A stretch of 64,000 bases of DNA from Patescibacteria group bacterium (GTDB lineage: Bacteria > Patescibacteriota > Minisyncoccia > Portnoybacterales > UBA2143). The DNA itself is not shown here. Continued below: a report on this DNA, generated by a model with database tools. The stretch lies in contig JAHJSM010000001.1 in the NCBI GenBank assembly GCA_018830295.1, forward strand, positions 65,980-129,979. Direction: 5' to 3'.

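Follow-up and report, generated by a model that had tools for sequence, protein, structure and literature searches.

We find that the gene content read from the sequence in the initial annotation largely holds when open reading frames are listed and searched against Pfam and NCBIfam profiles. Each of the six B12-binding radical SAM genes it located (here B12_1 to B12_6; proteins of 460-478 aa) matches both PF02310 (57.7-104 bits; cut-off 32.1) and PF04055 (71.8-98.9 bits), and the three ~360 aa proteins described as SPASM/twitch-type (SPASM1 to SPASM3) all match PF04055 and carry a SPASM-type C-terminus. One intact CxxxCxxC motif is present in each of these nine proteins. The C-termini of the SPASM-type proteins contain only four or five cysteines (C-x17-C ... 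CxCx3C), leaving room for one auxiliary cluster, as in a twitch-like rather than a full seven-cysteine SPASM domain. Six GT2 genes, one GT4 gene, a Wzx-type flippase, a UPF0104/LPG_synthase_TM flippase-like protein and, within the window, two class I methyltransferase genes are likewise present as described. The initiating transferase, called WbaP-type, passes TIGR03025 (377.5 vs 295.6) but not the WbaP-specific model. For the claimed heptose route, an NTP-transferase+HAD fusion, a GHMP kinase and a SIS protein are all present, but of the models concerned only that for GmhB scores above its cut-off (151 vs 149.6). Two claims did not survive: only two of three supposed GT-C-like membrane proteins are GT-C-like, and in same-species contigs the locus runs on beyond 64000, to a total of at least about 42 kb.

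Features of the window and gene orders in related loci (MT, methyltransferase; rSAM, radical SAM; B12, further B12-binding radical SAM gene)
Feature	Position	Strand	Details
Block 1	30882-37727	+	
Block 2	37729-45735	-	
Block 3	45805-58158	+	
Block 4	from 58150 onward	-	
B12_1	34508	+	
B12_2	46822	+	
B12_3	50534	+	
B12_4	53246	+	
B12_5	54689	+	
B12_6	61394	-	
SPASM1	40357	-	C-terminus 36.3 bits (cut-off 21.5)
SPASM2	56111	+	C-terminus 23.7 bits (cut-off 21.5)
SPASM3	58150	-	C-terminus 22.0 bits (cut-off 21.5)
NTP-transferase+HAD fusion	48252	+	best NCBIfam match HddC/GmhB
GHMP kinase	49538	+	best NCBIfam match HddA
SIS protein	51977	+	best NCBIfam match GmhA
GT-C-like	37729	-	PMT_2 23.4 bits, slightly below cut-off
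GT-C-like (GT39)	43714	-	PMT_2 only 16.4 bits; 40-50% identical homologues with PF13231/PF02366, named GT39
Membrane protein	62834	-	C-terminal 372 residues of a 579-aa protein; ~10-11 TM; no family
AAA_14/DUF4143 ATPase	32290-33591	+	
AAA_14/DUF4143 ATPase	7993-9204	-	
Metalloprotease-like protein	29061-30824	-	587 aa; one N-terminal TM; weak MXAN_6640-type HExxH match (35.5 bits)
SocA/Panacea antitoxin-like protein	23138-23923	-	with HTH; between SecA and small ORFs
Coupling-ATPase run	4497-14055	-	PilM/FtsA-like ATPase; VirD4/TrwB-like ATPases at 5915-7321 and 10975-12639 (the latter with C-terminal treble-clef zinc finger); separate zinc-finger protein at 9290-10975
Past window end	L169:58-9168		579-aa polytopic protein, three MT, 616-aa AsnB-like amidotransferase, GT2, GT4, two further MT
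Parcubacteria contig	L088		PMT_2 GT-C < / > GT2-DUF2304-B12_2-HddC/GmhB-HddA-GmhA-MT-rSAM-...-GT2
Chloroflexi MAG	L085		GT2-B12-B12_2-SDR-HddC-HddA-GmhA-GmhB-GT4-MT
Dehalococcoidia loci			MT-GT2-B12_2 only
Interleaved order	L115		HddC-GT2-B12_2-HddA-GmhA
Interleaved order	L137		GT2-HddA-HddC-B12_2
Lawsonia plasmid 1	L172:5151-23714		GT2, DUF2304 x2, SIS, B12_2 orthologue (57%), MT, second rSAM, MT x4, GT2, HddC-GmhB fusion (43%), HddA (47%), DUF2142 and DUF6077 membrane proteins
Buchananbacteria	L174		PMT_2 < phosphoglycosyltransferase-GT2-B12_1-x-LPG_synthase_TM-B12-aminotransferase-GT4
Nanoarchaeota MAG	L175:143-5141		phosphoglycosyltransferase-GT2-Polysacc_deac_1-B12_1-LPG_synthase_TM-rSAM/SPASM-MT
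B12_1 relative	L176		GT2-B12-B12_1-LPG_synthase_TM / PMT_2
B12_1 relative	L177		GT2-B12_1-MT
B12_1 relative	L178		GT2-...-deacetylase-B12-B12_1-rSAM/SPASM-MT-B12
Following the L178 cluster directly	L178:10848-13403		ferredoxin, NifS-like cysteine desulfurase, NifU, FAD/NAD (flavin) reductase
Nealsonbacteria MAG	L012:375-14957		eight B12 nearly back to back (about 15 kb), MT, membrane protein
Shared block			B12_1-UPF0104-MT1 / GT-C-GT2b-SPASM1-GT2c-...-GT39
Shared block			GT2d-DUF2304-B12_2-Hdd genes
Shared block			MT2-B12_4-SPASM2-GT2e

Radical SAM genes occupy 11,760 of the 33,119 nt of locus inside the window. The genes form four blocks with intergenic gaps of -41 to +76 nt; peptide maturation, a rival reading, is very unlikely because the locus has no space for a precursor gene. 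Profile searches detected neither an SDR epimerase or dehydratase nor an aminotransferase in the locus, an absence that fits sugar diversification by radical enzymes. With the genes past the window end included, the locus probably makes a heavily methylated product that is perhaps also amidated. G+C content is 0.29-0.34 in the locus (30001-64000) versus 0.35-0.48 in the upstream housekeeping region (1-30000), a fall that would fit horizontal acquisition or shuffling of the kind seen for O-antigen loci.

Several other window genes deserve mention. The two AAA_14/DUF4143 ATPases share 29% identity, and the one in the locus separates the phosphoglycosyltransferase gene from GT2a, its neighbouring GT2 gene; the two are adjacent in the Buchananbacteria and Nanoarchaeota loci. 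This ATPase looks like an unrelated gene inserted in the glycan operon, possibly of a mobile or defence type. The metalloprotease-like gene is divergent from the phosphoglycosyltransferase gene, and its orthologue in L090, a related Parcubacteria locus (344 bits), lies ~2.7 kb upstream of such a gene; its product may be secreted and serve the glycan system as partner or substrate. The upstream 30 kb otherwise encodes SecA, SecDF, MurB, a P-type ATPase, VirD4-like ATPases and similar genes; of these, the coupling-ATPase run may represent a DNA-uptake or secretion apparatus, and the antitoxin-like gene probably has a toxin-antitoxin or defence role.

As paralogues the six B12 enzymes are old, and they differ in conservation. 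Pairwise identities are 26-38%, B12_4 and B12_6 being the closest pair. None of the six reaches an NCBIfam equivalog cut-off, and the best models throughout are HpnJ and BchE. B12_2 stands out, scoring 435 bits against the HpnJ model (cut-off 577.6). Aligned along its whole length with the annotated HpnJ of Mycetohabitans and Paraburkholderia, it shows 36% identity, more than with any locus-mate. Its database relatives, 59-85% identical, come from Parcubacteria, Nealsonbacteria, Chloroflexi, Dehalococcoidia and Thermodesulfobacteriota. The B12_1 group has a fixed length of 470 aa; it includes Portnoybacteria and Buchananbacteria members at 63-93% identity, a Nanoarchaeota MAG member at 65% and one at 74% whose record is labelled 'Deltaproteobacteria DG_8'. 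At the other extreme, the relatives of B12_3 in species-representative genomes do not exceed 41% identity.

Modelling B12_2 with AF2 from 32 family members gave a confident structure (pLDDT 90.6, pTM 0.89). Its top PDB match is AprD4, a sugar-acting 1,2-diol dehydratase (TM 0.74-0.79), followed by the cobalamin enzymes OxsB, TsrM, MgmA, CysS and TokK. AprD4 is not known to use cobalamin and is a real counter-example; cobalamin-independent, AprD4-like chemistry is a rival reading. In sequence alignments, AprD4 covers the radical SAM core only, whereas the cobalamin binders also cover part of the N-terminal domain. The DxHxxG motif is absent from all six B12 enzymes. All six retain the Gly(-Gly) β4 and Gly-Glu α5 motifs with which class B enzymes of solved structure bind base-off cobalamin (PMC9204698); across the B12_2 family G108 and E132 do not vary, and G131 is kept in at least 90% of members. 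On balance, cobalamin use by the six enzymes is a plausible prediction. The initial annotation had predicted obligatory corrinoid scavenging from a host if the organism were CPR-like, and the organism does belong to the Patescibacteria. The 64-kb window yielded no tRNA and no match to any Rfam family, the cobalamin riboswitch among them, and its upstream 30 kb no corrinoid-related genes.

The suggestion that synteny be sought in related MAGs proved fruitful, with B12_2 and B12_1 neighbourhoods conserved across phyla. A B12_2 query retrieved 80 metagenome loci, 71 of them with an orthologue of at least 400 bits; 22 of these 71 extend 3 kb or more to either side. Within 6 kb of the orthologue, these 22 contain a GT2 gene (21/22), at least one heptose gene (14/22), a further B12 radical SAM gene (11/22) and a methyltransferase gene (11/22). 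Heptose genes co-occur with PpgS/GacI-like GT2 genes (17/25 vs 3/28 loci; Fisher p = 2e-5, the loci being phylogenetically non-independent). The radical SAM enzymes might alternatively act on GDP-heptose or other nucleotide sugars; we consider remodelling of lipid-linked sugars most likely. The Parcubacteria contig L088 reproduces the core seen in the window but has none of the other five B12 genes, and four close Parcubacteria relatives (L090, L091, L093, L096) carry the window's blocks in differing combinations, a modular shuffling typical of surface-antigen loci. The core cassette is also present on the 27-kb plasmid 1 of Lawsonia intracellularis (NC_008012). This species is a cultured pig pathogen and the plasmid is small and conserved; a search for literature on the plasmid with radical SAM found no paper.

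Around B12_1, a GT2 gene of 286-294 aa lies upstream in the same operon in all five foreign contexts. The 65%-identical Nanoarchaeota (DPANN) orthologue, within its cassette, points to inter-domain transfer among ultra-small episymbionts. Genes directly downstream of the L178 cluster suggest a dedicated electron and Fe-S supply for radical SAM enzymes. Glycan loci with multiple radical SAM genes recur, among them the Candidatus Nealsonbacteria cluster, which alone supplied a strong homologue (432 bits) of the 579-aa membrane protein from the window.

Known systems offer parallels for both neighbourhoods. GT2a resembles AglJ, dolichyl-phosphate hexose transferase and ArnC, and the deacetylase of B12_1-bearing relatives is of the ArnD family, which acts on a lipid-linked sugar in the Arn pathway. 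GT2d, whose best NCBIfam match is PpgS, pairs with a DUF2304 protein like GacI/GacJ of Streptococcus pyogenes and PpgS/Rv3632 of Mycobacterium tuberculosis, where the DUF2304 protein stimulates a GT2 making a polyprenyl-phosphate sugar, later a GT-C substrate (bioRxiv 10.1101/180810). The Mycetohabitans hopanoid cassette, hpnI (GT2)-hpnJ-hpnK (deacetylase)-LPG-synthase-domain protein, matches the GT2-(deacetylase)-B12_1-UPF0104 order. Genetic evidence shows that conversion of bacteriohopanetetrol glucosamine to the cyclitol ether needs HpnJ, and the archaeal radical SAM enzyme Cds similarly converts a lipid-linked hexose to a cyclopentyl calditol head group; neither mechanism has been reconstituted (PMC13459092; PMC9204698). 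A glycolipid rather than a polymer is a rival end product for the locus.

From the observed domains, motifs, gene order and conservation, we infer lipid-linked-sugar remodelling in five steps. The phosphoglycosyltransferase and cytoplasmic GT2/GT4 enzymes would build a polyprenyl-phosphate-linked oligosaccharide, flipped by Wzx. Two Arn/Gac-like side systems, GT2a and GT2d/DUF2304, would charge polyprenyl phosphate with single sugars, the latter probably using the heptose nucleotide from its own operon. B12_1 and B12_2 would remodel these lipid-linked sugars, UPF0104 and other proteins would flip them, and GT39-type GT-C enzymes would join them to glycan or protein outside the membrane. The remaining radical SAM enzymes and the many methyltransferases may then make strain-specific modifications.

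The initial interpretation is therefore supported in part and sharpened by the B12_1 and B12_2 neighbourhoods, its gene-content observation being confirmed. Its building blocks are familiar: radical SAM enzymes of the class B and SPASM types, glycosylation by three components and a heptose pathway. What the literature searched does not appear to describe is their combination, in which a radical SAM step follows a polyprenyl-phosphate-sugar synthase. This arrangement is conserved in CPR bacteria, Chloroflexi, a DPANN archaeon and on a Lawsonia plasmid.
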